Made by a program: the position numbers and the translations under genes. 64,000 nt of DNA from Amphiscolops sp. MND2022 (Eukaryota). This document shows, piece after piece, positions 1,709 to 41,433 of the stretch (its first letter is position 1; the number at the start of each line of letters is the position of its first letter). The stretch spans positions 40,922,001-40,986,000 of the forward strand of contig OZ076409.1 of the NCBI GenBank assembly GCA_964187785.1, read 5' to 3'. A model generated the notes under the pieces. The model was not told the origin of the DNA. It searched no databases and was given only the letters and a program-made list of their open reading frames with translations.

Positions 1709-2121
1709 TACCCCCTCCGGCAGCGTGGTCCGGGTAAAGTTTAATAAAATCTCACATAGGACCGTATTAAACGGATTTCTTTATCCTCTTGCCGTATTTT
1801 ACGGTAGTCTTCTTCTCTACTGTGCTCTGTTGTTGTTGTCGTCGTCGTATTCTTTTGGATTTTCTGACGGGTTGTAACGGTTCTAATGTTGTATTTTCTT
1901 CTGTTGTAGATACCTTGTTCGGAGGTTAGTTTGTCTTCTTTTGGGAGAGTTGCAGCTCATCGCCTAGACTGGCATACACCGCCTCGCCGTCGGATTTATT
2001 GTAGCAGTCGAATTCTTCGTCCGACACTTTGCTGAGATTCAGGTCGATCTCCTTTCCTGCACTTTTATTTTGGTGACGTGAATTGACATTTGTTGCTGAA
2101 AGGGTAACGGGTTGGAGATAA

Positions 2122-2849
2122 TGTAACGTCCACCTAACAGCGTACATCATAGAAATGGGATAATACCTAGGGTGCTCAAACAGGAGACCGTTACTTTACT
2201 ACAGTCCTAGACATTAGTTCTTAATCCCGAAATGGTCTCCCAAGAGGGACTTTTTCAAACGTCAAAGGATGCTCCTCAGTTAGAGCTCCGTGGCGACGTG
2301 GCGGTGCACTCAAAGTCTGGACAAGACCCACAAGCCCGTAAGAACGTATCCTAAGGTTCCTTACGTTTCTGCGACTCTACATACCTCCGAGGTCCGAAAA
2401 CAAGGGTTTAGCTAAAGTCCATTTTAAGGAGATTAATAACGTCTAAAACAAAAAATAGGAGTCAAACATCACCAAAAGTCTGCAAAAAACCACAAATACG
2501 GTACAACAGACTGAGGAAACATCACGCGTCAGCGTCAGCTAGTCTTTGACCTGCTAGGTGGCACATGCAAAATATGCAAACTTCTGAGTTTCTTCATCCC
2601 TTGTGCCATTCTTCGGGTTTCGTTGGTAGCTGGGACGTCTTCCGAGGGAGATGGCACCCGGCGATTTCGGGGATACTTCTATTGCGGGGTGTTCTCTCTC
2701 GGGCTGGGTGGTGGTGTCTTTCCTGCGTTTTTTCGCTTCTTCTACGGTTTCCGTACCTGCCGGGTCGGCCATCTTGAATGTGCTCAGCTGATACCGCACA
2801 TTTTGAATTTTTGATCAAAATTTTGTAACATCGACTGCCTGACGTTACA
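2122..2849 (-). mobile_element. Solo LTR (728 bp) of the TGTAACG...CGTTACA clade, subfamily B
   Basis: Terminal inverted TGTAACG/CGTTACA, TAA on both flanks, clear similarity to the LTRs at 34532 and 39244. Confidence 0.9.
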
Positions 2850-4699
2850 TAAGTTTTCCATGTACTGTTGTGTTTTTGCTTGTGGTTACGGTATGTTCCG
2901 TACCCGATATAGCAGTTGGGGTTTTGTTGTTGAATTTACTATCTAGCGATCACTTTTTGCAATTCTTTTAGTAAAATTTGAAATTATAGTTGAATTTGTT
3001 CATACTTACCAAACTGGTCGCTTTTTTGGCCCGTGAAAAGGGGAACTCCCGTCTAAACTTTGGCTCAATTGTGTTCCTTTTGACTTAACCAAGTGGTCGG
3101 TTATCGCTATAGCCGAATTTCGGTTGGTTTAGACGCAGAGGTCCTTTGAATCCACTGAAATGGCATCTTTAAGGCTAGATAGTTTTGTGCTAGGTTCAGA
3201 AGTGAGAGTGGAACGGTGTTTTTGTGGTTTCGGGGTGTATCTAAATCTTAGGACGTAAAGTGCTTTGTTTACATTTATATATTCAAAACAAAATGTAGCA
3301 ACAGTTTCATGATTGGTATTTTTACATATTTTGGCCACTGACCCGCTGCTGCTTTTGTTCACTGCAATTAGTATGTATGGACTTGATGACAGGTTTTTGT
3401 TATGTAGATTTTCTGGCAAGGTGTTTTCGGAAGATCGATTTTAGTTTTTTCGGTTAGTAGTAATTGAAAGTTTACCTCGCTACCGGCGTTGAGACATGCT
3501 AAGTATTTTTTTGTTTATTTTGCTCGTTGTCCGCCTGCTTACTCTGCAGCCAGATTATTGCTCCATCGTTGCACGTTTTGTTTATTCTGGGGTGTCCAAA
3601 ATTTAAAGCGTTTAAGGAGCATAACGTAGTCTTTTTGGCCCTATCATCCGGTCGTCAACCATTATGAGGCCCCATCGGTGGATGAGTTTCCTTTCCACTG
3701 TTTTATAGTCGTTGGGTATCTGGCTGTTTTTGTTGTCTTCGAGGCTGCAGTTTAGTTCAGTAATTTGGGGTCGGCGGCCGTTTCATTGATCTGTGTTTCT
3801 AGATCCAATTGAAAGTTAGTTCGGCTGCCCTAACATTGTTCTCCTGTTGCTTATTTCTTATGGCCATTTTTTTCACCACGCGTTCCTTTGGGACTGTGGT
3901 TTCGGACTGTGGGAACAACTATCTCTTCAGTCGGACCATCTCGGTAGTCCTGTACGTGTATGGCGGGGTATGCTCTCGCTTCATGAATTGCTACTGCTTC
4001 TCCGGAGTTTGTGGAGTTTGTTGAGACTTTAGATTCGGTTTCTTCGTTAGCTTGGTCTTGTTCTTGCGGCCTCGGTGCTATTTCGTCTCCGGGATCTCTG
4101 AATAAGCCCCGCTAATGTGTACTTCTCCTTCATTTCTTCTGAGCTGTAGATCGATCCTTTTTATTTTCCTTCATTCGTCCGATCTTCTTAGTTTGTAGAT
4201 CTCTGGAAATTTGTTGTTCCCTTGTGGTCTCATTGCTCTAGGTCTCGCTAGTTCAAAGCTTCTTTTCACCAATTCCGTAGTTTCAGGTGACTTTTCTCTT
4301 CTGTTGATTATGGCCGTGATTGCATTGTCCGCGCTTCAACGGTAGCGTAGTTGTCGTCCGTCTAATCGGAAGACTCTTGCAGTTTGTTTTTTCTTCGTTA
4401 CTAGTATTCATTGTGGAATAATTCGTATTTGTTTTGTTGGTAATGTTTTGTCAGCTGTAATGTGAAATAATAGGAAAGAATATGGCTTTTGTTTGTTTCG
4501 TAGCGTCGGGTATCAACTAGCGTGTGTGTATTACGCTTGTTCGTTTTGTTGTAAGCGTTCCTGTCGTTTGATTGGTCAAAAACCCGTGCGATACGGATGT
4601 TTTTTGTTGCTAGATGGCGTTAATCACGAGTTCGTTTTCGTAATTTGCTCCTAGTTCCTGGTTTTTGGTGGGACTTTCGGTAATAAAACCGTGATTTTG

Positions 4700-6600
4700 A
4701 TATTTTTCCCGCGGTGTGGGTTAGACCGATGTCAAAATGATTTAGTCTATCTAACCATCATGTTAGTCGTGCACTGAATTGTTTCTGGGTTTCTTTTTGG
4801 GAGCGGTTCAAGCTCTTGGTGATCAGAGAATGGTTGGATCCATTTACCGTATAGTTGAAATCGGAATCAATTCAGCCCTCATACAACAGCCAGTAGTTCC
4901 ATTTAGTCGATGGAAATTTTTTTTCTTCGTCGTTCAGGTATCAACTGGCAAATGCAATTCGATTCAACGCCCAGTTCCATTGTTTCTGCCTTAGTGCTAC
5001 CCCGAGACCGGTTTTGCATGCATCGGTACTTACGATGTTTTCTTTGATGCCGTTGTAATGGACGAGACAGGGTAATGCTGGTTCCTGTTTTGCTTTGTTG
5101 AAGGCCTTGTTGCGGTCTTCCGTCCAGCCCCATATTGTTCCTTTTTATAGTAGTCGTCTCATGTTGTCCGTTTGCTCAAGAGATTCGGTTTAAAGTTGGC
5201 AAGATAATGAATGGCGTAGGCAATGCAAAGGATTTTAATGTTTTTGGTGTTGCTTGGGGTTTCTAGTTTGTTTATTGCGTCTGTTTTTTCTTGGGTCTGA
5301 TTCTGTCTTGTGAGACTGTAAGTCCGAGCCATATTAATTGCTTCCGGTAGAATTTTGATTTCTTTTTGCTTGCTCTATATCCTTCGTTTCAAAGTTTAGT
5401 GAGTACCGGTTACAATTGTCTTCTTTTCCGTTCTTCTTTTTCCTTCGGGTCACGACAAGGATGTCGTCTAGCTGGTTAGTCTGGGGGACCGTAGAATCCT
5501 TTTAAGAAGAGGTAGTATCCGTTTATGTTTTAGCCTGTCACTGCAATGTTGCAGTGTTTGCTGGTGTCTGGTCCTAGTCTCATTTGTCCGTAGTAATAGT
5601 CGAGATATCTCACGGATATCGAAATTGGGTCGTGTTTTTTTTGGATGTTTCAGAGGAAATTTGGTTTAGCAGTTTTTCCATGTTTGGCATGTAAGGTCTC
5701 TTTTTCACACACCTTTCGTTGAGTTTTAAGGAGTTCAATGCAGTTTTCACAGTTTTGTTGTACCTACTACTGCTTTTGAAGTTCACAGTTTTCTTCATTA
5801 CTACTGGTGATACGATGATAATTTCTCCGATGGTTTCAAATCTTTCGAGGTGTCTGGATTATATTAATTGGTCATTTTTCACGAATAGTTGCAGTTGATA
5901 CGGTTTTGCTCTGGCCTTATGTTGGATTGCAAATCCTCAGCATCCTGGTTTTAATTGAATTTTTTTCGATGTGCTTGATTATGTGGGTAATTTCAAACAA
6001 TTTGATGAAACATGAGTGAATGGCTTTTGATCGGTTATTACTTGCGTTCAGCAGAACGATCGGATTAGTACTTTCGTTGATGGTATTTGGTAGTTGTTTT
6101 AGCCAGTTTACACATAGAAGTGGCGTGAAGTTGTTTCTTTGTGTGATAAATATAGGTAGTTTTGTGGTTTCGCCGTTGTATTTTATGTCTGCCGATACTT
6201 TTCCCAGGAACTTTTTTTCATTTTTGTTTAGATCTTGGTATCTTTTTCTTAGTGATTTGATATCTTCCGGTTTGTATAGTGTCGGGTTGTTAGGCATTAT
6301 TGTGACCAGAGAGCTGGCATCGATGGTTAAGTTCTGGTATACTCCGTTGACTTCCACTTTGATCCCGTAGCGGTCATTCTTGTCTGGAAGAATTCTATTA
6401 AATTGTGTTAGTGGTTGGATTTCTTCGGAATCGCTCTCTTCTCCATCGTAGGTTTCTTCAACATAGTTTCTGTTTTTCTTTTTGTGTTCTCGGTATTGCT
6501 GCAACATTCACTTGCGAAATGCCCTATTTTGTCATAGTTGTTATATTCAACCGGTTTCGTCAGGCATTTGTGTAGTGGTGTCCGTTTTTTTGTGCACAGA
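4700..6600 (-). pseudogene. Decayed gag-pol of the old Gypsy (Zn knuckle, protease, RT, RNase H remnants)
   Basis: Minus-strand fragments: KIGHFASEC (CCHC remnant), TIDASSLVTIMP...LLCVNWLKQL (protease), VKTALNSLKLNERCVKKRPYMPNMEKLL (RT N-terminal part), DACKTGLG near 5000-5030 (RNase H). Many stops and frameshifts; boundaries approximate. Confidence 0.8.
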
Positions 6601-6867
6601 AACCGCACAAAATTTACTTTTGTGTTGTTACGCCTTAGTTTGTATTTTTTGCCTTCGCAGTGCTCTTGCTTTTGTCGTGCTTGTATTTTTTGTATTGGTT
6701 CTTGTTTTAGCTCTTATTCTTTTACGAGTGCTGTGCACTTTGTTGACTGTTTGTGTCTTGTTTCGTAGCTGTCTTGGGTTACTAGTTCCATGGTTGTATT
6801 GAGGTTCAGCGTTTTTTCGCGGATAAGGTTTCCGGTCTTTTTTTACGGTAATGCTGGTGATAACTTT

Positions 6868-7595
6868 TGTAACGGCAAGCTCTGGTACAGCAATATCAAC
6901 CGACATGTTTGGAAATTTTGTCAAAAATTCGTACAAATTTGACGTGGCACTCAAACATGCTCAAGACGAAGTACCTGCCAGAAAAAGCACCCCAGAAAAG
7001 CAGAAATCGCCGCTCGCGACGAACAGGCACCGGAGACGACAAAAAGACGTCCCCAACGCATACAGAACACGGTATTGTGTCTATCTCTAGGAGATATCCA
7101 TTACTACAGTAAAGGAAACCAGTGTTCCAGATGTTCGCCTGAGTATCCCTGCGGTATCCTGTGTGGCAACTAGCGCTAGCGCTGGGAAGCTGAGGTCAAT
7201 TTTCATCAAATGACTGTGAACTCTTGATCTCTTGTTGTATTTTTCGATGTGGTAAATTAATATGCTCGAGAGCTGTTGTTTAACATCTGTTTATCCAATT
7301 TGGGGATTTTATCAGATTCTCCAATATTACGGTTCAACCTTCATCGATTTTCAGCCCGATTTTTAAAGGCTAGTTGAGCAGTGGTCTTGAGTCTTGCAAG
7401 ATGCCTGTTACTTTTAGCAGTTACAGACTAGGACCAGGCCAGAGAGTATCCTACAAGACGGTTCCCCCACCTTGGGACTGGCTCCTTCGGAGGGAAAATG
7501 AGCTAGAGCCGCGGAGATCTAGGTCCCAGATTATATTCGCTGTTCTAGTTCCTCCACTCTACGTTGCGGTTCAAGCGCCAGCGCTTATCGTTACA
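6868..7595 (+). repeat. 5' LTR (728 bp), subfamily A
   Basis: TGTAACG...CGTTACA, near-identical to 24911-25638. Confidence 0.97.
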
Positions 7596-7610
7596 TAGAA
7601 ACTCATTTTT

Positions 7611-7628
7611 TGGCGACCACAAAGGGAT
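7611..7628 (+). promoter_or_regulatory. Primer binding site, tRNA-Arg-like
   Basis: TGGCGACCACAAAGGGAT resembles the complement of a metazoan tRNA-Arg 3' end (...TCCCTTCGTGGTCG-CCA, from recall). The same motif is at 39211-39227 (-) and ~62788. Confidence 0.8.
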
Positions 7629-8806
7629 CGTCTTGGGAAGCTTTCCCTAGCGGTTTTTAAAAGATCTGGCCCCCTGGTGATCAGCGCCAAGCCCGTTTTC
7701 GACTCTGGACAGGAGAGAGAGAAGCAGAGTTTTACCTCTTTTTAGTCGTATTACGTCTTACTGGAACTGGGAGAGGCGTTGAACCAGAGAAAATGCCGAA
7801 GAAAACGTGTTTTCAGGTGCGAAAATGGTATTTTTGGGCATTTTAGAAGGAAATCGCTCTTTATGTGTGATGTGTTGTGTACCCATCAGCGGGTACTTTT
7901 TTGCAGGTGCAGAGGACCGTAGCACGTGGCTACGGGTGTCTAACAGGTTTTTTGAGCTATTTTCAGCCATTTTATGCCATGCAAGAGGGTAACGGATGGA
8001 TGGTTGACCATACTCCAGCGAGGCGAAGGAGGGGACAAATCTCGTGTTGCCTACTTCCTATTCCCATTTCTCGTGGAGACGTCCTAGAGGCATGGTTTTT
8101 GGTGGACAGCAAGTGCAACGACAGACGGTGCTAATGGTCCCACCCGCGTGTTTCTGTCTGGTCTAGATGTGGAGAAATAACGTGGTGAAGATGCACCCCC
8201 TGTGACCAGATGCGTCGCTCAGATGGAGTATGGTTGGCGAAAATTTTGAGAATACACCTCTTTCGATGGAGAATCGTTGGTGCAGGTCAGTGACGTTCTA
8301 CTATAAATGTAACGACACCGTACGAAGTGCTTTTCTGCGAAAAGATAGCACTTGGAGAAAAAACCATCATTTTTGCGTTTTTTTGGTGTTTTTCTTGGTT
8401 TCGAGCACTAGTGCTCAAAGAAGCCAGGAAAGTTTAGTGGAAAGTTTTGAAAAAACAGCTGCAAGGCTCGAGAAAGCCGGCACGAGGCACGAAAGGTGAA
8501 GTTGAAGCCTTTGATTGTGATAAAAGTGCCAATTTGATGCCGAAAAATGTGGAAAAAGTGGAAATTTGGCCAAAAAGGCACCCAAAATGTGAACGTACAC
8601 GAGTATGGAAGTGCAAAACGACAGTGTACGGCACTGCCCCAAGTGTAGTTGACCCTCAGGATACTAATTGCCACTTTTGTAGCGGACTCAGGCAGCCTGG
8701 GGCTGATACAGTGCGAAAAACTTGTGATTTTTGGCATTTTCGAGCAGGGAAAGTGCATTAACCGAAAACACCCAGAGCGAAGCTTATTCGAAGAGAGCGG
8801 GCTCGA

Positions 8807-9073
8807 GCGCTCTCATTTTCAATTTTAGCAGCAAAAACGACGCATCGTGGTGAAAACCGCGTGCAGAAATTCCTTTTCAGTGTTGAGAAAAGTCGAAAAA
8901 CCTTGAATTTTGGCCAGTTTCAGGAGTACCAGAGTGCATCATTAAAACCTCTGGGGCACTCAGTGTTTTCGAGACCTGGGAGCCCGCGCGCTCTCATTTT
9001 CTGTTTTTATAATAAAAATAACGCGTGGTGGTGAAAACCGCGTGTAAAAACTCCCATTCAGTGCTGAGAAAAG
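8807..9073 (+). repeat. Diverged direct repeat (~181-bp period) in the 5' leader
   Basis: gcgctctcatttt...gtggtgaaaaccgcgtg...ttcagtg(t/c)tgagaaaag occurs at ~8807 and ~8988. Confidence 0.7.
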
Positions 9074-10289
9074 GGGAAAAACGCACTGAATTTGATCAAT
9101 TTTCCACAAAACCGCACTGTCTCTGAGCTAGGGTCGGGTCATCGATTCCTGAACCCTAGCCAAAAAGTGGTTGGATTTTCGTAACCACCACAAAAATTAA
9201 CGTTAGTGCCGAAAATTTGGTGAGCGTATCGGTCACCAAAGTCGAGAAAAGCTCTCTGACGTTTCGACCTCAGAGAAGCGTAAAAGGACCAAAAAAATCC
9301 AAAACTGCAGGACTGTCAGTGCCTTACACCTAGTGGGCACCACCAATTGAGGGTTCATCCCAGTGCTACGGATAGTGGGGCAACACGTTGGTCCCATTTT
9401 GCCTGCCGTATCACTTTCTGAGGTGATCCTCTTGGTCAATTTGTGAAAAAAGTCGTCAAAAACAGTGTTTTTTCGTGTACAACGTACATAGTGGGTCGAA
9501 ACCTCAAATAAGCGCTCGCGCTTCAATTCGACTATATCAAGGGCATTGTAGGTGCCCACCGGCATAGACTACCAAGTTTGGTGCCGATTTGTGTGATACT
9601 TGTCGAGAAAATAGGAAAAACGCGGCGCCCAAAAAAGTGCGCAAAAAGGCAGTTTTTTCTTAATTTTTCCAAGTAACCCGGGCACCTTGACCGACGGGTG
9701 GGGCTATATTGCAGCCCACCATCGTAATTTGTGCTAGTTCTTACGTTGCTGCAGAGAATTTGAGCTTGCTAGCTCTTTCCAGTGGACCGCAATCTTGAAA
9801 AGACGTGAAAAACAGTGTATTTCGATACATCGTGGTACCACACGTCTGTACCTAGGTGAAACTGTGTTGAAGGAGCGCGTGTTCATTTTCGTAAACCTAC
9901 TTGTACCTAAGATCTGCTGGTCAATTTTGGGCTTGATACAGCGCTTCTAGCGCACACACGAGCCTCTTGAGTGTTGTCGTGCGAATTTTGAAAAATCCTA
10001 AAATTCTTTGAAATTCTTCCTGTGAGTGACTGAAGACTTTCTGCCCCAAACCAGGTTGATTTTCTGGCCCAGTGCGCGTGTGAGAAAACGCTGTGCAAAT
10101 TTGAACAGCCTACGAGCTCTAGAACGTGTTTCGAAAAGTCTAGGACATTGAATAACATCAAATTTCTTAAGTGCTCACCGGGACGACCAAGGGATCAGCC
10201 TCGGATTGAAGACCCTGGTACGTTCGGCGACCCAATTTGAGTCTTCCGAGTAATCGTGAGCGGTAACTCGATCGCTATTAATAAGCGCG

Positions 10290-12941
10290 TTGGCCACCGA
10301 ACTGATGGCGGTGCCCCATACAGGTTCACAATCGTGGGTCACGATAGATGGTTCGCGTTTTTCAGACGACATGTCTGACGAAGTCACTATCGAACAACAG
10401 CGAAAAGAGGAATTGGCCGATATGGTTCCTCCCTCAGAGAACTCCAGTGTTTCCGAAAATTCGCGTCGGACCGAGCAGTGGGTCGACGAAACCTGCCGCG
10501 ATAGAGCCAATGAAGTGGAAGAGGGCTGGCCCAATTCGAATGCAACCGATGAATTGGTGGCTGAGGAAGGGTGCTCGCGCGCACCCCCGGCTGGAGAGAC
10601 ACAACTCGGCTCGCAGACCGACATGGAGCAGGACCTCACTTATGTGGGAGGTATGAGTTACGCGAGACAGCGAGGACTCGGGACCACTCGAGGACCTACC
10701 CGGGTCTGTGCCTACGGAAAGCACAAGAGGGTGCGACCACCCATACTGCAGGTAGGCGAACCACGTCAGGAGGCATCCCGTGTTAGGAGTATGGCAGGTT
10801 CATTGGCCTCATCGCAACGGTCTTCGGTATACAAGGCAGCGCTATTGGATGCCCAAGCCGAAACCCAACGGGCTCTAGCAGGTCTGGCCAGCACTCGTGC
10901 TCAGTGCAATGAGCAACATCTTGCCATCGTGGAAAATATTAAAGTGATGCAGACGACGATGCGTGAGGGCCTGCAAGTCAGCGATCAATTGCGTACCGCG
11001 CAGAACGTGCAAAATGCTCGAGTGGACACATTGGGTCACCGGATGGGAGAGATGAATGACATGTTGATGGCTCGCGAATTGCGCGTGGAAACGCAGATCA
11101 ACGACTTAAGCAATCAGATGCGCACAGTGCTCAATGCCATTGATGTCATGAGGCGTGAGAGGTCTCTCCCGCGGCAGCCCAGTGCAAGAGGAGGCGTGCG
11201 GAATGGAGGTCCAGTCCGTATCTCGGAGCCGACGTGCCCGAGCCAGGTAGTGAAATCGGAACTGCCAAGCGCGTTGAAGCCTAGCACTTCCAGGCCGGCA
11301 GTGCCTGCGCCCCGGAAAGATGAAGGAGTAGCCGGAAGTTTGGTGATAGCCACGCCTGAGGCAGAGCGCAAGCCTGCACGAGTGCAGATGAGGGGACATC
11401 ACGACTCAGCAGAGTCATCGATGCCTTCTGCAGCCCAGAGCACTACTTGAGATCAAGGCGTGGATCCGATGTCAACCATCTATCTTGATTCTACGGTTGA
11501 AGTCGACTTATCCAACACCAAGGCAACCCTAGGTTCTCAAACCGAGGGAGCAACGTTTGCAACTGCCCCTATTTCGATGTCAGGACCAGACTCCTTATAC
11601 TTGACCGCAGACTTGTCAGCCGATCATGGACTGCCCTCGGGCACTCCCTGCGCTAGCAGCACTCGCAAGAAGGACGAAATCGCTGACCTGTCGATACTAG
11701 CCACTCTTGGTAGTCATGACAGGACGCGCGAGGGGGAAGCTAAGGTCGAAGAAGGAGAAGCCATATCCCCTGAGCAGCTGAGATTCACGGCCGCCATATC
11801 AAAGGCGATGTCAAAAGAGTTAGCGCCTTTACTCGCCGGCAGAGACTTGGCTCAGGCGAGACCTAATGTATATCGCGGTTCCAAAGACGGATCCATTGAT
11901 GGGTGGATCCTTATTATGCAGAGATACCTGAAGAGAACGCAAACCAAGGTCTCAGCCGAGGACCAGGCCTGGAGCATCATTGGTCACCTTGAAGGTGAAG
12001 CTCGCAACTACATCATTAACAAAGCAGAATCCGAACGTGACACCCCCGAGAAGGTGTTTGAATTGTCATCCAGCCGCTTTGGCGCTGGAGGAAATCGTAT
12101 GCAAGTACGACAAGCTTTCCAGAGCCGCATTCAACATGAGAAAGAAGACTGGATGCAGTATTTAGACGCTCTAGAGGGTCTTAGAAGTCAAGGATTCCCG
12201 CAAGAGACAATCACTACCAAGCGCTATGAAATCCTCCAGCGCTTCATGGAAGGCGTACGAGACCCAGCGCTGAGGCGGGAACTTGCTATAGTATATGCCT
12301 CGGAAGTCTTCCTGACCGAACCACCTACGGTGGAATCCCTTCGCTTCACCACCCGCCAATTGCAGCGCAATCGCCCCAAACCCAACCAATTCACTCAACC
12401 CTATGACCCCAGACTAGCAATGAGGTCTAGACCTCAACCCTTCGCGCCGCTACCCCCCAACAAAATGGTGTTACCACAAGGAGTAATGCCTCCCCCACCT
12501 GCGAGCAATGCCCCACCAAATCAGGCAGCAGCGCAGTCTGCGGCACGCCTACCCGTTGGCGCATGCTTCAACTGCGGTCAAGCTGGGCATTTTGCCCGGG
12601 ACTGTCCCACCCGCGATCAGGCTCGCAAACCAGTGGCAGCTCCCGAGCCAGAAGGCGTGAAAGTCACTGCTGAAGATGTAACTGATGGCGTGTTGGAGAA
12701 TTATCCAGGCATTCATCAGTGTGCGCACTGTGGAGTCTATGACCATGTGGATGTCCCCTGTGGTGAGCATTCTCAAGCTCCAAGGCCTAATGATGAATTG
12801 GCCTACAATCGATGGGCTGAGGTGGAATCCGCTGGTGTGGCCGCCCACACTGTACCCCTGGAGGATGATCGCGTGTTAATGCTGCACCCAGCGGAGCCTC
12901 CAGCGTTTCATGCGGAACAAAGCAGATTCAAACGTGCTTAG
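10290..12941 (+). CDS. gag: Gag: acidic and coiled-coil N-terminus, capsid, CCHC knuckle; one in-frame TGA at 11448-11450
   Basis: ORFs 10290-11450 and 11460-12941 share a frame. Capsid-like IDGWILIMQRYL...LEGEARNY, knuckle CFNCGQAGHFARDC, second knuckle-like CAHCGVYDHVDVPC. Confidence 0.9.
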
Positions 12942-15900
12942 AGCCCACCACGTTCGATCCGCAAGGGAGAACGTTGATCTCGATTCATCTGATGCTGGCA
13001 GCCGAGCAGGTGCGTAGACCAACGCTAACCTTGGCGAAACTCTGGGTTGAGCTATCTGTCCTCTATAACCGGATGGAGTTGCCCCGCCCAAAGCAGTGGT
13101 ACGTCCCTGGAGAGTCGGAGACCCTGACTACATACTCGCCAGTACCGGTTTGTGCAACGATGGACGGCGTGGACGTGAAGTTCGAGGCCTGTGTGGTGGT
13201 AGATGTATTCCCACCCGGCTTATGCTTGGGACCTCAAGAGCTGAAATGCTATAATATCAACCACCAAGAACCGACCGGGGAAGCGCGGATAGATGAGCGT
13301 GCGTCGCTTGTTGTCTCTTTTGTGGTGCCCCATGCGGCACCTATCCCACTGCGAGGCTTGGTGGATACTGGTTCCGGGGTGTCCATACTAACCTTCTCCG
13401 CCTTTAACCGGGTAGCTGCACGGACCGGTGCGGTCCTGAAACCCTATCAAATTGATTTGTACGCTGCCAACGGGAAGACAATAACGACTTTCGGGTTGGC
13501 TGAGCAGGTACGCTTCCAGTTGGGAGGGTATGAACTCGAAACCAATTTCGTCGTGGTAGATGACACAATGGGCGTGGAGGACTTTCTGTTGGGTCGAAAC
13601 TTCCTCCGTTCCTACCAAGTCCTGGTAGATCTAACCTCCATGAAGATAGTGGTGCGAGCACCAGTGAAGCCCGTCTGGCATCATGCACACACCCAGGTAG
13701 GTGATGCTTCGCTAACTACTCCCATTGCTCTGGACAGTGACCTGGTCCTACAGCCTTTCGAGCGTACAGTGGCAAAGGCTAAACTTGTCACCAACGCGCT
13801 TGAACCATCAATTTTCCAGACCGTGGCGCTTAACGCCTCGTTGTCTGATCCCTCATTGCAAAATACCATCTTTTTAGAGGACAGCGTGGCCACTGTCAGT
13901 GAGACAGGAACATTGTATGTGAGTCTGGTAAACCTCACCAGAAACCAGCAGCGTGTACGATGTGGTGCCCACCTGGGCACGGTAGTGCCTGTGTCTTTAG
14001 TATACCAGGCTGTGCCCCAAAAGCTGGATGCTACTGCAGAAACTGACCACAAAACTGAAGCCGACAACAGTCGAGCAAATTTTGTTTATAAAGTGTACAG
14101 TGAAATGAATCTATCCACTGCTTCTGAGTTAACTTCTTCATCTGAATTTGAGTTTTTGTCTTCGACGGATCCAAGTGAAGCGGGGCTTTCGGAGCGCGAG
14201 ATTCGCAAGCGCACCGATCCGGACCTATTGGCCCCGATCCCTGGGCCCGATTCTCAATTGCAAGAAGTTAAAAAACTCTGGGGCGCTAGTCCTTGGACAA
14301 CATTTAACGAGTTTGATGACCTATTCATGAAGCGTAAGGCGGATATTGGCCGCTGTACCATTGGTAAACACACTATAGAGGTAGAGCCTGGGGCTGTACC
14401 GCACCGTGAAGGTGCTCGCAGAATGTCCCCCGAAAAGGCTGAACGAGCCAACCAGGAGGTTCGGAGCCTACGGGCCTTAGGGATGATACAACCTTCACTG
14501 TCCCCTTGGGCAAGTGGTATCGTAATGGTAAAAAAGAAAAGCGGGGAGTTGCGTTTTTGCTGTGACTTCCGACCGCTGAATGAAGTAACCATTAAGGATG
14601 CCTACCCCCTGCCCCGCATTGACGAAAGCCTGGCGCGACTGGGCAATGCAAAGATCTACACTAGCATAGATCTTGCCTGGGCTTTCTGGCAGATTCCGTT
14701 GCGAAAAGCGGACCGCCACAAGACAGCTTTTGCCTGTGAGTTGGGACTCTTCGAATGGTGAAGAATGCCATTCGGCTTGTGCAATGCATTAGCCACCTTC
14801 CAGCGAGCAATAGCGCGAGCGCTACAAAAAATAGTCAATCGCAAAGGCAGCATGGACATGGCATACATCGACGACATAGTTATAGCAACGGAAACTGTGG
14901 AAGATCACATGGCGCGTCTGCGCGAGGTCTTTGAATGCCTCCGCGAGGCTGGCTTCAAGATGCGCGTAGCCAAATGCGACTTCATGAAACCAGAAATCAA
15001 ATATCTGGGACGCGTAGTCTCCGCAGAAGACGTCAAACCGGACCCGAAGGCTGTTGCCAAAATGCGCGACTGGGACATCCCTCGCAACAAGACAGAGATG
15101 CAAAGTTTTTTGGGATTCGCTAATTATTATCGTGAATTTATCCCATGGCATGCCAAGCTGGTTGCGCCCCTCCACGCCGTTACTGGACTGAATGCCACGT
15201 TTGCATGGGGCCCTGACCAGCAAAAGGCCTTCAACGAAATCAAGAAAGCATTGATCGAGGCGACTGCGCTCGCGCAGCCTGATTCTGAAGAAGTGTTTGT
15301 GCTGGACACCGATGCCAGCGCCGTTGCCATTTCCGGCATCCTACACCAGTGGCAAGGAGCTCCAGGAGAGCGACGCCTACGACCGATCATACGATCATAT
15401 ACGGCAGCAAGAAATTGACCACCACCAAAGCCAAATATGGGGCACCCAAGCTGGAAATGTTTGCAGCCTACTACTTCATCCTGAATTACCACAGCTACCT
15501 TTGCCCCCAAAAGTTCACCCTGAGAGTCGACAATCAAGCCCTATCCTGGTTGAAAACCTACTCCACGGACCAAGCATTGATTGGACGTTGGATCATGACG
15601 CTGGACAGGTATCACTTTCGTGTGGAACACAGACCGCGAACTCAACACCGCAATGCTGATGGCTTGAGCAAACGAACCAACGATTATCGATGCCGAGAAC
15701 AGCAGCTTGCGCAGCTGCCAGCTACCGGAGAGCGTTGGAATTTCCTCTCGGCCGAGGAATTCGACAACCTCCCCGTAGCCCCCTGGTTCGACCTGCAAGG
15801 TCGAATAATTCCAAATCATCCTGACCTACCACTGCATCTGCAGAACTTGGAGCCTAAGGCTCCTGACCAAGCACTCCGTGTGCTTCGCCGTGTGCAACAA

Positions 15901-25638: not shown

Positions 25639-25735
25639 TTTGATGTGAGTAGGTCTTGTTATATGATGTCTTTGAATTCGCAGTTTTGATCGAGGGATGC
25701 CAATTTTCGCCAGTGTTCTAGCGGCGTTTCGTTTT

Positions 25736-26147
25736 TTTTTACCCAGAAGAATTATCGACGACTGTGCAACGTTTTTCATTTTGGCATGTAGTAGCCTTTG
25801 AATTGTTGTTATTTGCCGCTCACATAAATGGGGGAGGAAAATCATGATCTGTGATGCGTTTTTTTTTACAAATTCTGCCAAAACTCCACTTTATCTCCAC
25901 TCCATGGAGTGAAGTGCACGTCCCTTAGTTACTTGACTATTTTTAGTAATTTAAGTTCACTAGCGATAATTACAACTGAGTTACATCAATTTTGATGGCT
26001 CAGTCAGGTTGTATGTCCTGGGTTCGAACCCGTGCTGGTTCTTGAATTTTTTGTTTCCCAGTCAGTAGGTTCGACCCTCTCCTTCCTCATACTTTTTTGC
26101 AAAAAGCGTGTCGCGGAAAATATCCCGGTGCTTAGCAGGCGTCTTGT
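25736..26147 (-). repeat. Dispersed non-autonomous repeat (HINE-like or tRNA-derived), copy 1
   Basis: Terminal (a)caagacgcc..ctaagcacc, internal aaaatcatgatctgtgatgc and GGTTCGA B-box-like motifs. Related copies at ~29280-29650 and ~31340-31752. Interrupts the old gag. Confidence 0.65.
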
Positions 26148-26510
26148 ATTAATCTTTTCGTGTTAATGGTGTCGGCATCTGTGTTAAAATCTCCTTTGGT
26201 GATGATTTCGGTTCCTGATGGTCCGGCTCCCCAAATGAAATTTTGTCTTGTTTCTGGTTCTTTCTTTGTCCATCTGGTGCTTGTTGGTTTTGCTTCCCGT
26301 GGATAAAGCCAGGTTTTATATCGATGTCGTAGATTCGTTTGATGTAGTGTCGTAGTCTTTCGGTCCATTCTTTTGAAGTGTATAGGTTTTTGCCGTCAAG
26401 TCCGGTGTTGAGGTGGGTAGTTGTATGCCGTTTGTGGTGGTTGTCTTTGTTTCTTCTTTGGTTAAAAATGGGTACATTTACACGGGTAAAAATAAATCTT
26501 GCTTTCTGTG
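26148..26510 (-). pseudogene. N-terminal gag remnant of the old Gypsy
   Basis: WTERLRHYIKRIYDIDIKP and NFIWGAGPS fragments downstream of the PBS. Continues as NETPLEHWRKL at 25639-25735 and at the left of 6868. Confidence 0.7.
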
Positions 26511-26513
26511 CCA

Positions 26514-26752
26514 TGTTGTAATTGAACACTTCACGGTTAAAACAGATCTATGGTTTAAAACTTAACTATACTGTCTTCTATCAGTCGTTACATAACAGTT
26601 CAATCGTAACAAAAGGTATCAAATCTAATAGCATCTAATTAACATAGATTGATAGCCAATTAGAGTTTGTTGGCCAACAGGCCAATGTCTTCTTGGCAGT
26701 ATCCGTATATTATTTTATTCGTTTGAAAGTCAGGTTTTCTGCGTATGCCACA
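26514..26752 (-). repeat. 5' LTR of the old Gypsy element
   Basis: Homologous to 1453-1708, adjacent TGGCACAG PBS on the minus strand, followed by CCGG. Confidence 0.85.
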
Positions 26753-32340: not shown

Positions 32341-35300
32341 GTGTTATGTGAATAGCGTGCACATATTGTACAGAAGCGAGGAGCTCGGTTCTTTTTCGGA
32401 CCTTTTTTTATGTCCTACAGTTTAGCTAGCTGAAAATGATTATTAAAGTGAAGGGGTACACTTTGATCAATCGAAAATTTCATCAAAAAAAGTGTCGAGC
32501 AGTGCTGAAGAAATCCATAGGTCTTTTCCTCAATAATTGATATACGTCATCAGTTCTACTGGATCAAAACCGATGAGGTCACTCTCAAGACTCGGAAAAA
32601 ATTGCGAGAAACTTTTCTTTCGAAAACAATTGATTTTTTTCAAGTTTTAAAATTTGTCGGTGAGTCACAAAGTACCGATAGAAATTTTTGAAAAGTGGCT
32701 CCCTATGCTCACAAGGCGCTTTGTTTCTGTTAAAAAACGAGGGAAGGGGTTTTGGTTGAAAATAATTCAGAGAAAAGTTGCATAAATCCAAAAAAACTAA
32801 AGGGGTGACAACCTCTACTTCTTTTCCCGTAGAAGTTATGCTGTGTTGAAGAAATTGAAGGATGAACCTTTTGATTCCAGGTAGATCTCTAGTTCAGAAC
32901 ACATTCGGGACCTTTTGATCGCATTTGATGCTCTTTGGAATTTTTTTCGAAAGAAAATAGATTTTGGTGAAAAACCAGAACAGTGAATAAAAAACGACAA
33001 AGAGGATCAATTTTAGTCAGTCTGTATTTCAAATAGCCCTGACTAAAAATTAAATAGAGCTCCAACGTGGTTATGATTCATTGTTTTCATAGTAAAGACC
33101 TTAAAAATCGTCAAATGCATTGTCACGCGAGCTGAACTGATATAAATGGAATTAAGTGGCGTATTTGTTCCCATTCCAAGAAAAATAAACTCCAGTCATT
33201 TTATAGAAATCAAACGAGCGTCATATCGTGCGTGCAATCCAACAAATGGTGGTTATTCAGATTGAGTACTAGAAAATCTATTGCGTGAATACAAAATGAT
33301 TGAGCCAGTGAGGAAATAATGAACATTTTCAGTCGAGATTGAAATAAAGGACGCTCGAGTATTATATTCCAGTTTTTTCCAAGTAGGCTCTGAGACATAA
33401 ACATTTTCCCAGCAGATTCAATAAGGGCACAAATAAACATTTGAACGTAATTGCATCTACGACTTCAGAATATGCTACAATGTTTTTTGAGCATTGTTTC
33501 TTTTGCTACAACTGTACCCAGGTAGCGTTGATCCACGAAAATTGAGAAACAAAATTGTTGGCTAGTGAAAATAATCAATTTCTAAAATGTAATTGATTGT
33601 TTTGCTTTTTTTCGAATTCGATCACGAATAGTAACAGCCTGCGCAGTGAGAAACTGTCATATTCAATTGGATGATCTTGATACGAGATAGCGAAACACTT
33701 TCATACAGTGGGCTGTCGAAATGATTGCAATAAGTTCAACGTTTTGACAAGAGAGCGGAATTTGGTAGTGAAAAAGTTGAAAACTTTCTCTTTCTGATTG
33801 TATTACTCTGTTCAATGATAACCACCTTTCGCAAGACCAATTCTTACCTCTAGTTGGAACTTTAGAATCTAGATACTTCAGCAGAAAACTGAAGAAACCC
33901 ATAGAAGATCGATAAAGGTCCGTAAATCAATGGCAATATTTGAGATCGAATATGTTTATCCACTGTAATCTAAAGCTAGCGCGCACTTACTAGAGCCGGA
34001 ATAATGCCTAGGTTGCCTTGAAAGGAAACCATGGTCTTACTACAACGCTAGACATCAGTTTTTGTCCCAAAAACGGTCCTCTAGGGGGACTTTCCAAGCG
34101 TCAAGGAGGCTCCTCAAGTATAGCTCCGTGGCGACGTACCGGCACACTGAAAGTCCGGATGCCTCCCACAAGCAAAAACTATGACTAAGGTTCCTGCGAG
34201 TTCCTACATACTTCCGTGCTCCGAAAAGAGTATTTAGCTAAAAAACATTCTATTAATGCTAAATGATGGAATTAAGGGATTGAACAGATCGAGCACATCT
34301 GCTGATCGTACATCTGCAAATTAACATTGAGAACTCACGAATTCAACCAGTATAAACATCTGCAGCTATGTCAATAATTTTTCGGTGTGCGAAACAGTCC
34401 ATGGGTAGGTTGCACTTTCCTTCCGGGCTCCAATGGTGTCCACATATCTGTCAAACTCTCGGACGGTAGGTTTTTTGTTCTCCCGGTCGGGTGTGTCTGC
34501 CTGCCTTTCTTTTTTTCGTCGTGCAACGTCTTGTAACGACCGGCTAGCGACGCACATCTAGGAAACAGGACAATGCCTAGGATGCTTAAACAGGAGACCG
34601 TTGTCTTACTACATACCTAGACTCTAGTTTTTGATCCCAAAATGGTCTCCAAGGGGGACTTTTCTATCGTCTAAGGAGGCTTCTCTAGTTAGAGCTCCGA
34701 AGCGACGCGCCGGCACTCTCAAAGTCCGGACACGCCCCACAAGCCTGTAAAAACGTATCCTAAGGTTTCTAGCACGTTCCTACGACTTCCTACATGCTTC
34801 CGAGGTCCAAAAAAGTGTCTAGCTGAGATACATTGTATTTGGTGAATAAGTTCTAAAATTGAGACCTAGTAGGTCCAACATCACCCAAATACTCAATAAA
34901 TGACAAAATACGGGGATAAGCCCCAGTAACATTACAGTTTAGGGTTGGTCATCAGTTTGGCCTCTGGCATCTTTCCTCATCTTCGGGGCACAATGGTCTC
35001 ATTTGGCACTTTTCTGCGAAACCCTGTCTTTTTGCTGTCAGATGGCACAATTCCTGATTCTCTCGCCTTCTGGGTGACGACATCTCGGACATTCTCGTTC
35101 CTGGGTGGGGTTGGGTCCTTTTTGCACTCTTTCGTCCTCTTTTTCAATTTCCAGTACCTGTCAGGTCGCCCATCTTGTGCATTTTTCGATATAGCACACT
35201 TTGACATCTTGAACGAAATTTTCAAAGTTCGTTCTGTTCGCCGACTGCCGGACGTTACATCCTCCCCGGGCCGTAGTTTGTCGTCCTCGACAAACGAGAG

Positions 35301-37959
35301 AGGACGTTCACATCTTGGTTGCTACCATCCAGTGATCCAGTGATACTGTTGCAACATGGTACTACAGGAATCTAAATGGAAGTCGTTGCCCAAAAACACG
35401 TTATTGCCCAAAAACATGAGTTTTTGCCAGCCTAGCAGGCTTCCTTGGATTCCACACCAACAACGGGTTCTTGCACTGGAAAAATATTAGCAACTTTAGA
35501 CACTTAGCCTTATATTCAAAACAATTTCAAACTTCTAATTTCGCACCAAAATTTCAAAATTCTTAGCACCTTATTGCATCTGCATAAAAAGCACTCATCA
35601 CAACAGGTTTGGCACTAGCCAGGGGCCCACCTGATAAGTTAGGTTTTATAAAATGCACGATAGCACTTGAAAAGCAAAAAATAAAAGTAACAGCTGTGGT
35701 CTTGCAGAGTTCATGGCCAACAGAAACTGCACAATAACTAGCACCAATGGTGAAACAGGCCTCAAAAAAGCAAAAATATCACCAAAAGTGAGGATCCATT
35801 CAGTCTATTGTGTTAGCAGTGTACGCTCAGATATAAGTACTGTCTAGGTAGTACAAGCACCAGTGTATATGCAAGAGATGGAAATAAACTGCTTTTCAAA
35901 AGGATGACATTGTCGCTAGCGATGACAGAGCAGAACCAATAAAAGTCAAAAATCAGGCATGATAGATCATGAAAACAGTCTTCGGCATTAAAAACAAGTT
36001 CCAGAGCAATTATTCGAGTTCTAAAAGCACGGCCGCAGGCCAAGCAGTTCTCAGAGCTTCGAAGCTCTAGATGTTTCATCATGCTTGGTGTTAATTTCTC
36101 TCGGGAGAGTACGGGTACTCCCCGGGCCAATCTCTGGTCCGGTGTTTTCACATCGACATGGTTCACGCAACTGTGGTACCGAGCACCAAGGTACACCTTA
36201 GGCATGAATCGAGCAACGAACACTGATTTTTTGAGAAGCTTGCTTGGCTACAGATGTTAGATTGTCTGAAAAGTCCATTTGTCACTCATGCTGCCCTGTG
36301 TTTCTGGAGGGCACAAGTAATAACAAAAATGTGATTAGAGACTATGGGTAGACTTTGGGGGTGAGTAGGAGGAGAGACACTGAGTTTGAAGTGGTTTCTT
36401 CCCTTACGATCGTAGTACGATCAGAAAAAGCGTTCTTTTTCAACTATGGTGGTCACTATGTACTTGTTGTTCTGTTTTGAGACGCACTGCGTTCAAAGTG
36501 TAAACCTCTAAAAGTGCCTATAAACGTGCTCCAGCACCCACTGGGTACAAAAAGCATCGCGCATGCATGTTCGCAATGGATAGATTGCACTTGGGTGACT
36601 TTGATAGCAGTCAGGAGGCGAATTTCCATTTTCGGTTTTTCACCTCTATGTCTCGTAGACCGGTTTTCTCAGAGACTCGTGATCTTAGGGTCAGCTTAGC
36701 ACTAATCAAAGTGATTCAACAAGACGCCCTGAGGGCGCCGGGTATGCTAATGGGGTCGCCTTGGCCCTCACTGACACGTACATTGACAAAAACTTTGTGA
36801 CTTTTTGGAAAAATGCCCAAAATCAACAATTTTTTCGTCAACGTGCACCTCCGGGGAAGGTGAAAATCACTTGTAGCGCTGCTAGCGACCTGAAAATTTC
36901 ACACCGTTTAATACACTGGCTGAATCGTGGGGAATAAACCTCCGATTGCGTCAAAATTGACCCTGTGGGTGTCACGGCCACTTAACAATGTTCACTGAAA
37001 ATTTGACTATGTCGTGAAATTGACAAAAAGAGGTCAAACTCGTCTTCTAGGCGTCCCAGCTACCTGAAATTTTGCATGCGAGCGTAACTTTTGCCCACGT
37101 AATAGGCAAAGACGGCGGCGAGGTGCCTGGATTAACATCCGGCGATCCGAGGTGACAAAACCTTGATGTACCAGAGGTACCACTTTTTCGGGTCAAAATT
37201 CACAAAAATGTCAATTTCTCAGCTTGGGCTAGAAGCCGGCTGCTCAAATTGCACAAATCGTCGGGATCTAGTGCTGTGCGTACGAAAATGCAAGAATTTT
37301 AGTGAGGGGGTTACCTGCGAGGTATTGCACTATGCTCAACTAAAATACCATTTTTTCGACATTTTCACAAGATTTTTGAGCAAAACTGCGGCTAAGATTT
37401 TTCCACGAGTACTAATGGTAGCGCCACCAAAATTACGCTACTAGCATAACCTTTTGCGCTCAACACGATGGTGCAATCTGTTTTTGGCTGCTCGTTTTAG
37501 GAGAGATTTCGACCTGTGCTGGAAGCACTACCACTGAGTTCCCAAAATGTCGCAAAATAATGCGTTTTCGTCTATTTCTCGGCAAACAGTGGTTGGAATC
37601 ACTCGCGGTTTTCTGCGTTTGCAACTTTATGCTAGGTAATGAAAGAAAATAGGCAAGCGAAACCTGGCAGGTTCCAAATAAGGTCTCTCAAAAACTTTTT
37701 CATGTTACACCTTTTACATTCTGGGAACAATGTGAAAAGTGAAAAATACGTATTTTCCCTAGCAACTTTTTATTTCTCGGTTCCCAGAAGTTCGGGATTG
37801 TTCTAAACGTAACCTAAAAAAATTTAATAACTTTTTTCACGGGACTGGAGTTGTTTCAATTATTAGTTTTGATGTTATAACTCTCAGGTCTATGGGGTCC
37901 TCTACTCAGGTCTATGTATAACAATAAAAAGTCAAGGGTTAAACTATAAATTTCTATTG

Positions 37960-38610
37960 CGGAAGGGTAAAAAACGTCTTGGCAGTAGTTTTTCGTACCA
38001 CCAAGCTCGGGAACAATGTTTTTGGGCAGCTCTGAAAGCTTTGGAACAAACGCTCAAGGCTTCGCCCTCACCACATTTGGTCTGTTAGGTCAATTTTGGG
38101 TCTTCACAAACAAAAATAGCTAAATTTTTCGATGTTTCAACAATTTAGCCAAACAAGTTTTTCTGTTCCCAACCTAACAGGTCTAATGGAACGTTTTTAT
38201 TGTATTTCCATTGGCCGTACTATCTTCTGAAAAATTTTGACTTTTGTAACTAATAATGACTGATAGGCGGCTATTGTATGAAAATCAATATTGGCTGGTA
38301 ACTTATTCAATATCTCGTTAGAGGGCCTCAAAAACTGCTTGACGATAACGTTTTCTGATATCAGACTCGGGAAAAAGAGTTTTAGGTGGCTCGCAACGCT
38401 CTGAGAAAAACGAACAGGGCTTCGCCATCACCATTTTTCGTCTCAAAGTCCAAAGTTGACACTTTCAAACAGAAATCGCTAAAGTCTTCGGTGTTTTTCA
38501 CAATTTAGCAAAAACAAATTTTTCTGTTCCTGACTTGATAGGTCTAATGGAACGTTTTTATTGTATTCCCATTGGCCGTACAATCTTCTGAAAAATTTCG
38601 ACTTTTAAAA
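37960..38610. repeat. Internal direct duplication (~361-bp period)
   Basis: ggtctaatggaacgtttttattgtatt.ccattggccgtac at ~38180 and ~38541, with similarity extending into the flanks. Confidence 0.8.
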
Positions 38611-38969
38611 GTAACCAAATCGATATTTGAGCTATTAGGGTGTTATGGCTAGCTCGCTATATATTTTCAGAAAACAATCGGAATACCCAGTGGGTATTTT
38701 TCTCAGTTCTTACTAATGGGAGTACGCCTGGGAATAGGCTTTTAAAGCCATAAAAACAAAAAGGGAGATTGTAACCCAGTCGATTCGTAGTGATCCACCA
38801 GTGGGTCAAGAGGGTGTTGCCGTGATGGACGTCACTCCGTCGTCACAGCTAGTGGAGGCGCTCACACCACGTCCCTGCAGTCCCAATACATTACAACTAA
38901 GCTGAAATGAGACTAGAAAACCCTTTAAAACAGAATCCGGTTAAGCCGGATGGTTAATCTCGGTACAGA

Positions 38970-39011
38970 GAAACGGTGTCGAAACGGTGTCGAAACGGTG
39001 TCGAAACGGTA
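38970..39011. repeat. 11-bp tandem repeat (gaaacggtgtc) x~3.7
   Basis: Read directly from the sequence. Confidence 0.9.
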
Positions 39012-41433
39012 CTTTGTAATTAAACGGTTATTTCTCATCTCAGACCTCGCAAACATGCAGGAAACGCAAGAACTCAGCTAGAAGAAAACCTAAAAGGCTT
39101 GATTAAGGCAATAAAAATAATCTAGGACTCTCCAAAATGTTTTCCTAGATCTGGACCCTCCGGGGCCGGAAAGCAGAAGTTGCTCCTGCTTGTACGCAAA
39201 ATGAAAAATATCCCTCTGTGGTCGCCATAAAAACTATTCCAGATGTAACGACCGTCTAGCGACGCACAACTAGGAAAAGGGACAATGCCTAGGATGCTTA
39301 AACAGGAGACCGTTGTCTTACTACATACCTAGACTCTAGTTTTTGATCCCAAAATGGTCTCCAAGGGGGACTTTTCTATCGTCTAAGGAGGCTTCTCTAG
39401 TTAGAGCTCCGAAGCGACGCGCCGGCACTCTCAAAGTCCGGACACGCCCCACAAGCCTGTAAAAACGTATCCTAAGGTTTCTAGCACGTTCCTACGACTT
39501 CCTACATGCTTCCGAGGTCCAAAAAAGTGTCTAGCTGAGATACATTGTATTTGGTGAATAAGTTCTAAAATTGAGACCTAGTAGGTCCAACATCACCCAA
39601 ATACTCAATAAATGACAAAATACGGGGATAAGCCACAGTAACATTACAGTTTAGGGTTGGTCATCAGTTTGGCCTCTGGCATCTTTCCTCATATTCGGGG
39701 CACAATGGTCTCATTTGGCACTTTTCTGCCGAAACCCTGTCTTTTTGCTGTCAGATGGCACAATTCCTGAATCTCTCGCCTTCTGGGTGACGACATCTCG
39801 GACATTCTCGTTCCTGGGTGGGGTTGGGTCCTTTTTGCACTCTTTCGTCCTCTTTTTCAATTTCCAGTACCTGTCAGGTCGCCCATCTTGTGCATTTTTC
39901 GATATCGCACACTTTGACATCTTGAACGAAATTTTCAAAGTTCGTTCTGTTCGCCGACTGCCGGACGTTACATCTTTTCAACTGATTTTTGGCACTTGCT
40001 AGGTCAAGCATGTCACAATTCGAATTTTTCAAAATTTCTAACTGGTGGACGTTAGATAGAAAATGATTTTAATCACGCTGCAAACTACTTTAAGCTTTTT
40101 TTTGAGAAACTTCTAAGTGTGGAGTAGAAGTATGTTAGAGTCAAATTTTTTTTCAAGTTCAAATTTACTAAAATATTTTAGACAACGCTTTTCAGATTTG
40201 GACTGATAAACTTTCCCGCAGTAACAGGTGGTTTCCGGTTACTATGACATGTCTAAAATAAACACACTGCTTAAGTTTGACATTTTTTCTAAGCTCCTAC
40301 AGTATGGCCGTTCTCCTAAGAAGCCATTTCGCTGTCGTCGAAGGAAACAATATTGCGTGAAATGTATGTCTGTCTTGAAAAATAGTTGATTAGTGTGATT
40401 CAATGTTTCACTGAAGCGTTAGATTCCTGAAAAGTCAATCTAAGTAAAAATTTATTCCTTTGATATCTCTGCTGTGTGGAATTATATTCCTTCGAATACC
40501 CTTTGAAAGACCTTAGAAGGTTTGCATTGACCTTGAACGACCTTCGAAGAAATGTATAATTCATTCAAGGAATTATAAAGATCTTTTGAAGGAATACATT
40601 CTTGAAAACGTTGAAATACATTTGCATAGCCATTACTCAAGTAAATGCGCAAGGTTTCAAAATTCAAATTTTAGACGGCATGAATAAATGCACTTGGAAA
40701 ATCTGATCTCACTTGCATTTAAAAGCAAACTGTGTTGTTTCAGATCTCGGAGAAAATTCGTAAAGGGTGCACTTCATAGAAAAAGAAGTTGCCGTTATTT
40801 TGACTGTGAAATAAGAGTGAGTTTGTGATATCCGAATTCTAATAGAGAAACCTTTGAAACAGACTTCTCAAAAATTTGAACAAAGCTCCATAAGAAAACA
40901 TTTTAACGGTGTCTATCTAAAAGTTTCGGTATTTCTGAAACTTTTTGTTCCCCGTAATAAGAGTATCATTGAATATGGGGACATTCTAATACACGGTGTC
41001 CACTAAGTCTCGGGATTTCAAATTAAAAAGTCACTTTAAAATTTATGAATTTTACTTGTCTGCGAAGGCGATTTCATGAAATCGCTCATTTAAAGTTTCC
41101 TTCATACTATAGTCAATCAAGTTATATTTGTTCCACTATGAAGCAGTTTCATCGAGAGCACCGAAAATTTTTTAATCGAATTCTTTGTCTTTCAAGACGA
41201 ATGTATTTCGTATCGAAACTTGTTATTACTGACAAACATTAGTGAACACGTTATTATAGCCGATAAAATTTTAACTGGTTACTATTAAGCGCTCTGTGGA
41301 ATGTGGACTGATTATAATGTTTCCTTAAAAGTTCTTTTTTTTACTTTTTTCAATTTGGTTGAAATAGCCAATATAATGACAAGAAAAGTATCTGTATTTT
41401 TGACCTTTCATTCAGAAAGCAACCTTAAACCTA

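Follow-up and report, generated by a model that had tools for sequence, protein, structure and literature searches.

How many host bases are duplicated when a long terminal repeat (LTR) retrotransposon inserts, and can the number fall below the usual range in an otherwise ordinary lineage? The question is raised by a 64,000-nucleotide stretch of the genome of Amphiscolops sp. MND2022 (assembly GCA_964187785.1, contig OZ076409.1, positions 40,922,001 to 40,986,000 of the forward strand; hereafter the window, whose own numbering is used throughout). It carries several copies of one clade of LTR elements, including E2, the only Pol-bearing copy, a non-autonomous copy, E3, and solo LTRs (Table 1). 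We put at roughly two in three the probability that this large TG..CA lineage of the Ty3/Gypsy type integrates with a 3-bp stagger; the broader statement that the stagger lies under 4 bp holds.

The primary evidence comes from the flanks of three young insertions. With exact matches tested at k=1-10, the solo LTR at 2122..2849 is flanked by TAA|TAA and matches at k=3 only; E2 (6868..25638) is flanked by TTT|TTT, with matches at k=1, 2 and 3, and E3 (34532..39972) by TCT|TCT, with matches at k=1 and 3. Read on the element strand, the duplications are TTA (2122-2849, minus), TTT (E2, plus) and AGA (E3, minus). The LTR ends are fixed, as the LTR pairs delimit them, and since the pairs are 99% identical (721/728 positions in E2 and 720/728 in E3), decay of longer target-site duplications (TSDs) is unlikely. 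When the boundaries were shifted by up to ±4 at either end for k=2-8, the only registers fitting all three sites were the unshifted k=3, its two 2-bp sub-registers and one trivial match within the terminal inverted repeat; no combination with k of 4 or more, up to k=8, fits even two of the three. Two 4-bp repeats obtained by a shifted boundary, TTAT at 2122 and AAGA at 34532, were rejected, as each borrows one LTR base and fits one site only. The chance of a 3-mer match is 0.022-0.024 against background and 0.050 under a true 2- or 4-bp duplication; for p=0.022, such matches in at least three of five copies have a probability of 1e-4, rising to 2e-3 for p=0.06; neither value includes the small correction due for the post hoc choice of k. 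An internal control is provided by the older host Gypsy, a member of another lineage, which has kept a 4-bp CCGG duplication (1449-1452 and 26753-26756) despite LTRs just 85% identical. Thus, the letters and k-mer matches agree with the initial annotation, both on the three 3-bp repeats, none reaching 4 or 5 bp, and on the CCGG of the host element.

The reading frame of this host Gypsy allows the empty site to be reconstructed independently. Each flank of the 2122 and 6868 insertions was aligned separately against the host frame, with 42 host-family proteins. At 2122, ten of the 42, from 6 clusters at 90% identity, span the site; none of these ten has a gap at the K-L-I-S-N-P segment, and two are gapped 7-8 residues downstream. 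One flank runs a single base into the Ile codon, and two bases ahead of that codon the other flank starts; because the separately read flanks overlap by 3, exactly three host bases are present twice. The register at 2122 is therefore proof of a 3-base net duplication that is independent of flank matching. At 6868, 10/42 proteins, all belonging to one 90% cluster, span the site with S-K-F-I/V, while the alignment of P0323 stops short of this junction; the duplication here is of 2 or 3 bp, and the flanks exclude 4-6 bp. The host frame itself carries 6 frameshifts in 1,387 bases. For E3, the surrounding old LTR has diverged too far to give a register at the level of single bases. The evidence thus consists of one proven site (2122), one clean site (34532), one of 2 or 3 bp (6868) and two that are uninformative.

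Table 1. Coordinates of the retroelements, their parts and their flanking duplications in the window
Feature	Position	Strand	Basis or remark
Older decayed host Gypsy, other lineage	1453..26752	-	LTRs 1453-1708 and 26514-26752, 85% identical; internal control
TAA duplication at solo LTR 2122	left 2119..2121, right 2850-2852	.	3 bp also by the host-protein register
Solo LTR, family A, 728 bp, TGTAACG..CGTTACA, within 3' part of host Gypsy pol	2122..2849	-	nhmmer E 1e-70 to E3 LTRs
TTT duplication at E2	left 6865..6867, right 25639-25641	.	2 or 3 bp by register
E2, Gypsy with decayed gag-pol, family B LTRs	6868..25638 (18,771 bp)	+	LTR pair, Pfam domains
E2 5' LTR, 728 bp	6868..7595	+	LTR pair
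E2 primer-binding-site-like motif, starts TGG, 15 nt downstream of LTR end	7611..7628	+	
E2 gag region, stop at 11450, CX2CX4HX4C knuckles	10260..12941	+	zf-CCHC E 4e-8
E2 pol: protease, reverse transcriptase, RNase H, HHCC and DDE integrase, in Gypsy order	12869..17752	+	Pfam
E2 Pol C-terminal extension, stop at 19432	17813..19612	+	ends in divergent TARG1/OARD1-like macrodomain, ~19067-19612
E2 extra open reading frame after pol, ~1,440 codons (967 + 471 aa), one stop at 22793	19890..24209	+	
E2 short polypurine-tract-like motif abutting 3' LTR	24902..24910	+	
E2 3' LTR	24911..25638	+	LTR pair
Older family-A solo LTR split by E3	33964..40056	-	no flank duplication visible
TCT duplication at E3	left 34529..34531, right 39973-39975	.	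exact k-mer match
E3, 5,441-bp non-autonomous element, family A LTRs	34532..39972	-	3' LTR 34532-35259, 5' LTR 39244-39972
E3 primer-binding-site-like motif, nearly the same as in E2, 16 nt from the 5' LTR	39210..39227	-	
Solo LTR, family C	48312..49030	-	kin to family B LTR of E2, E 7e-12
Further family-B element, 5' LTR 62028-62772 and start, exits window	62028..64000	+	single flank only

The copies belong to three LTR families, A, B and C, which constitute one clade by their shared termini, primer site and purine tract, a 340-bp 5' internal match between E3 and E2 (E 2e-10) and the match of the 48312 LTR to those of E2. All young LTRs have the TGTAACG..CGTTACA form and are 719-745 bp long. 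E3, a non-coding type of derivative without gag or pol, is inserted in an older solo LTR of its own family. Between the LTR end and the primer-site-like motif lie 15 nt in both E2 and the element at 62028 and 16 nt in E3, vs 0 in the host Gypsy, where the primer site directly adjoins the LTR. This spacer (7596-7628, 39210-39243 and 62773-62805) would imply a long extra complementary DNA (cDNA) end in the U5 region or unusual priming. The motif is putatively a tRNA-Arg site; ARAGORN and Rfam found no match in the window, which contains no tRNA gene. A scan for the primer site recovered one locus, with similarity confined to the surroundings of the motif.

Other details of these copies were also observed. 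The LTR ends of E2 form an imperfect 16-bp inverted repeat (13/16), and 16 terminal bases are common to 6868-6883, the start of the E2 LTR, and 48312-48327, the far end of a minus-strand LTR, i.e. opposite ends of related LTRs. E2 and E3 both have tandem-like repeats in their long 5' untranslated regions, in E2 at 8801-8910 / 8982-9093, with a spacing of ~180 bp, and in E3 at 38006-38253 / 38366-38614, with a spacing of ~360 bp; the homology shared by E2 and E3 overlaps the first of these pairs. The nesting of E3 in an LTR of its own family (33964-40056) and of two clade members in one host Gypsy may reflect a preference or mere repeat density.

By structural tests E2 is an element of the Metaviridae (Ty3/Gypsy), the usual TSD length excepted. 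In common with that family it has TG..CA LTRs, a primer site, a purine tract, a standard knuckle, a module of the GPY/F type and a Pol in the order protease, reverse transcriptase (RT), RNase H (RH) and integrase, with an RT closest to Ty3/Gypsy and not to BEL, Copia or retroviruses. The direct LTR pairs and the rve-type DDE integrase rule out a DIRS or other tyrosine-recombinase retroelement, as well as a DNA transposon with a 3-bp TSD. The pol of E2 is broken at ~14761, 15400 and 17070; an uninterrupted relative, P0135, has Ty3 Gag-Pol as its best PDB match (E 9e-98, 331 bits), followed by a caulimovirus-type polyprotein at 156 bits and a retroviral one at 125. The family comprises 406 integrase-region relatives, and two of its clusters at 90% identity alone have 125 and 277 members; its Atlas neighbors are Gypsy-like and its nearest outside relatives are 41-42% identical. 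A FastTree phylogeny of 125 RT-RH rows, which retained 8 family rows after thinning and contained no named Troyka or GyDB reference, joins the family with P0182 and P0191 in a clade (support 1.0) on a long branch, with weak deeper nodes. E2 departs from typical Metaviridae in a TSD of 3 (or 2-3) bp rather than 4-6, a length that is not part of the formal definition, in the 15-16 nt between primer site and LTR, in having GPH (W-R-G-P-H, near 17400) in its GPY/F module and in the TARG1-like macrodomain ending its Pol.

A 3-bp TSD has a published precedent among LTR elements, namely Troyka, or the Kuafuorterviruses (Kapitonov and Jurka 2008, as cited in PMC11673190; Kojima 2025, PMC12440569), a group described with duplications of this length (PMC12440569, PMC11673190 and PMC12859917). 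Thus, the general rule invoked by the initial annotation, that LTR integrases usually make 4-6-bp TSDs, needs this exception, and what is novel is confined to a second lineage. E2 and its relatives resemble Troyka in being LTR retrotransposons with the same Pol order, 3-bp duplications and both autonomous and non-autonomous copies. They differ in their termini (TGTAACG..CGTTACA vs CG..CG), their LTRs (719-745 vs 100-400 bp) and the internal part (17,315 bp in E2 vs 1.6-7.7 kb). Further, the E2 gag has two CX2CX4HX4C knuckles and no match to the CX2CX8-10HX4C type of Troyka, its integrase has a GPH module whereas Troyka is without GPF/Y (PMC12440569), and it carries a macrodomain remnant and an extra open reading frame (ORF). 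Hence, the element shares the duplication length of Troyka but is very probably not a member, as four defining features of Troyka (termini, size, knuckle and the lack of GPF/Y) are absent from it. We found no further LTR group with 3-bp TSDs in the literature, Repbase Reports and subscription journals lying outside the search; the papers retrieved dealt either with Troyka or with the annotation of plants or DNA transposons. Other non-autonomous LTR groups have 4- and 5-bp TSDs (PMC10886601). Known from Troyka, the 3-bp TSD is apparently new in a TG..CA Gypsy; the clade is likely to be a second, independent short-stagger lineage.

How such a duplication could arise is suggested by the general logic of these enzymes, in which TSD length follows from the stagger and the target must be bent the more sharply the shorter the stagger is (PMC4422553; PMC10045372). 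We propose that the integrase would join both CA ends, once processed, to the opposite strands of the target three bases apart, or possibly two at times, and that gap repair would then copy the bases between the joints to yield a 3-bp duplication. The family-A copies at 2122 and 34532, being without Pol, were probably moved in trans by an E2-type integrase; it would be the integrase, with a more sharply bent target or active sites lying closer together, that sets the short duplication, rather than repair. The short stagger presumably arose independently of Troyka. A comparable spread is presented by the IS3 family of insertion sequences, whose integrase-like DDE enzymes make TSDs of 3, 4 or 5 bp depending on the subgroup, although these are prokaryotic DNA transposons without RT or LTRs (PMC10045372); a 3-bp stagger is thus reachable in the DDE integrase fold. 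Two residues might be considered, as leads only, for the determinant of the stagger: an Ala two residues past the second catalytic Asp (D+2) and the His in the GPY/F module. In regular-expression counts, D+2 is Ala in 87/89 family motif matches and Gly in 150 of the 195 among the representatives, and GPH replaces GPY/F in 53/57 family matches, with the relatives P0182, P0189 and P0229 having GPF where E2 has GPH. At D+2, P0182, P0189 and P0191 have Gly.

Several findings weigh against a uniform 3-bp stagger set by this integrase. The tally within the window rests on just five two-ended copies, of which three have an exact 3-bp repeat, one a near match and one none, leaving 2/5 without an exact repeat. 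The near match is at 48312-49030, where a comparison at k=3 and another at k=4 each leave a single mismatch. The older solo LTR at 33964..40056, a copy that the initial annotation overlooked, has flanks CAC/TAG without duplication and a decayed terminal CA. At 6868 the host frame is kept with 2 duplicated bases, whereas 3 requires a later single-base loss in the T-run, and a rough likelihood under assumed mutation rates favors 2 over 3 by 3- to 18-fold across 32 settings. The family A LTRs, which provide the two cleanest sites, have no significant nhmmer match to those of E2, and so the link from the clean 3-bp sites to the E2 integrase is indirect. Ala at D+2 is also found in 18/195 of the representative matches. 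The unusually short stagger asserted by the initial annotation is thus upheld by the flank statistics and the 2122 register, and its description of 48312 as ambiguous was apt, but 'consistent 3 bp' is too strong: three young sites are exact, but 6868 may be 2 or 3 bp, 48312 could be either 3 or 4, and the old copy shows no duplication.

The lean of the 6868 register to 2 bp and the equal fit of 48312 to 3 and 4 bp would be accommodated by a short but loose stagger, with a mix of 2-, 3- and perhaps 4-bp products, or with differences between families A, B and C. IS481EU is an example of a family whose members make duplications of mixed lengths (PMC10045372), and one Troyka copy has 4 bp (PMC12440569). 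However, 6868 also presents a perfect 3-mer, T-runs commonly lose a single base, and both family-A sites are strictly 3, making this alternative unlikely in our estimation. That these are ordinary 4-5-bp Gypsy elements, with 3-bp repeats that are due to chance, sporadic events or remnants of recombination or mutation, is improbable: the sample is indeed small, the flanks are AT-rich with one T-run, the old copy is unmatched, and 3-bp TSDs are reported for 108/43,226 maize elements in 10.1101/137141, but the probability of coincidence is ~1e-4 to 2e-3, none of the boundary shifts tested makes a 4-6-bp match fit the three young sites, and at 2122 the register reads as a clean duplication of 3 bases, the host sequence continuing without a break on either side.

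A normal stagger might instead be trimmed to 3 bp by unusual end processing or gap repair tied to the LTR-primer spacer, whose 15-16 nt, as against none in the host Gypsy, would leave a long extra cDNA end. Trimming by repair should give variable lengths and ragged ends, yet the young ends are all precise TG..CA, and we regard this as very improbable; donor overhang is not known to be linked to TSD length. There is only a slender chance that the copies are themselves Troyka (Kuafuortervirus) members or were mobilized in trans by a Troyka integrase. The 3-bp TSD is the hallmark of that group, non-autonomous Troyka exist (PMC12440569), and the 3' end of one Troyka lineage reads TAACG, a string also found within the LTR ends here; however, TAACG here lies at the 5' end, the termini are TG..CA and not CG..CG, LTRs and the 17.3-kb internal part (vs at most 7.7) exceed the Troyka range, the knuckle is of the CX2CX4HX4C type and a GPY/F-like module is present. 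Returning to the 3-bp stagger of a TG..CA Gypsy lineage, a more specific version can be offered tentatively, at odds well short of even: the elements might represent a deep, hitherto undescribed lineage of giant, macrodomain-bearing Metaviridae whose own 3-bp (2-3-bp) stagger is convergent with Troyka and which remove a 15-16-nt U5 extension instead of the usual dinucleotide.

The remaining coding regions of E2 show further peculiarities. The macrodomain remnant at the end of its Pol is linked to relatives by a match of P0144 to P0189 (E 1e-8); P0182 and P0189 each end in a Macro domain (Pfam E 1e-4 and 2e-6, respectively), and a profile of the group matches TARG1/OARD1 structures (E 2e-30). 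The domain is clear in distant relatives and divergent in the E2 family, and it could possibly serve an ADP-ribose-related counter-defense. A literature search for Gypsy elements bearing a macrodomain returned a single paper. The extra ORF matched no Pfam family and had no Atlas match, with a single-sequence fold at a predicted local distance difference test (pLDDT) score of 38; it has one homologue among the proteins compared (P0093, 42%) and two moderately hydrophobic stretches. In size and added ORFs or domains E2 recalls the giant Gypsy elements, such as the AlkB-bearing ones of orchids and the planarian giants; these have other cargo, and no short TSD is given in the description consulted (PMC9289625). 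Outside this genome, a 16-mer LTR scan of metagenome contigs yielded 120 loci, of which one matched the window weakly, over 30 bp, and not one was an LTR; protein-based scans of viral contigs and scans of GTDB genomes found no related locus.

Elsewhere in the window, a dispersed repeat of ~340 bp (25797-26147, 29280-29645 and 31382-31488) interrupts the host gag. Further decayed retroelement fragments, matched by Pol proteins of the comparison set, lie at 30441-31186 and 56636-56833 (both minus), and short local and dispersed repeats occur outside the LTR elements at 42219-42873, 45716-47180, 54169-54523 and 61495-61640.

The initial annotation had also held that standard LTR finders would miss this clade, which is correct in part. 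In the benchmark of 10.1101/137141, the settings listed are -mintsd 4 for LTRharvest, which would exclude these copies, and 15-kb distance limits for LTR_finder and MGEScan, which the 18.8-kb E2 would also exceed; the same source nevertheless reports the 108 maize elements with 3-bp TSDs. Pipelines with a 4-bp TSD minimum or a 15-kb limit would undercount a seemingly abundant family. The length of the TSD has been treated as a stable trait of an integrase lineage, with 3 bp as the mark of Troyka. If the present reading is true, 3-bp duplications in a TG..CA Gypsy would add a second case, independent of the first, and the clade would lend itself to comparison with relatives that make 4-5 bp, as a natural way to learn what fixes the stagger of an intasome. 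If, further, the geometry is convergent, TSD length would be switchable by a few integrase residues, and a 3-bp TSD would no longer be usable as a Troyka marker.

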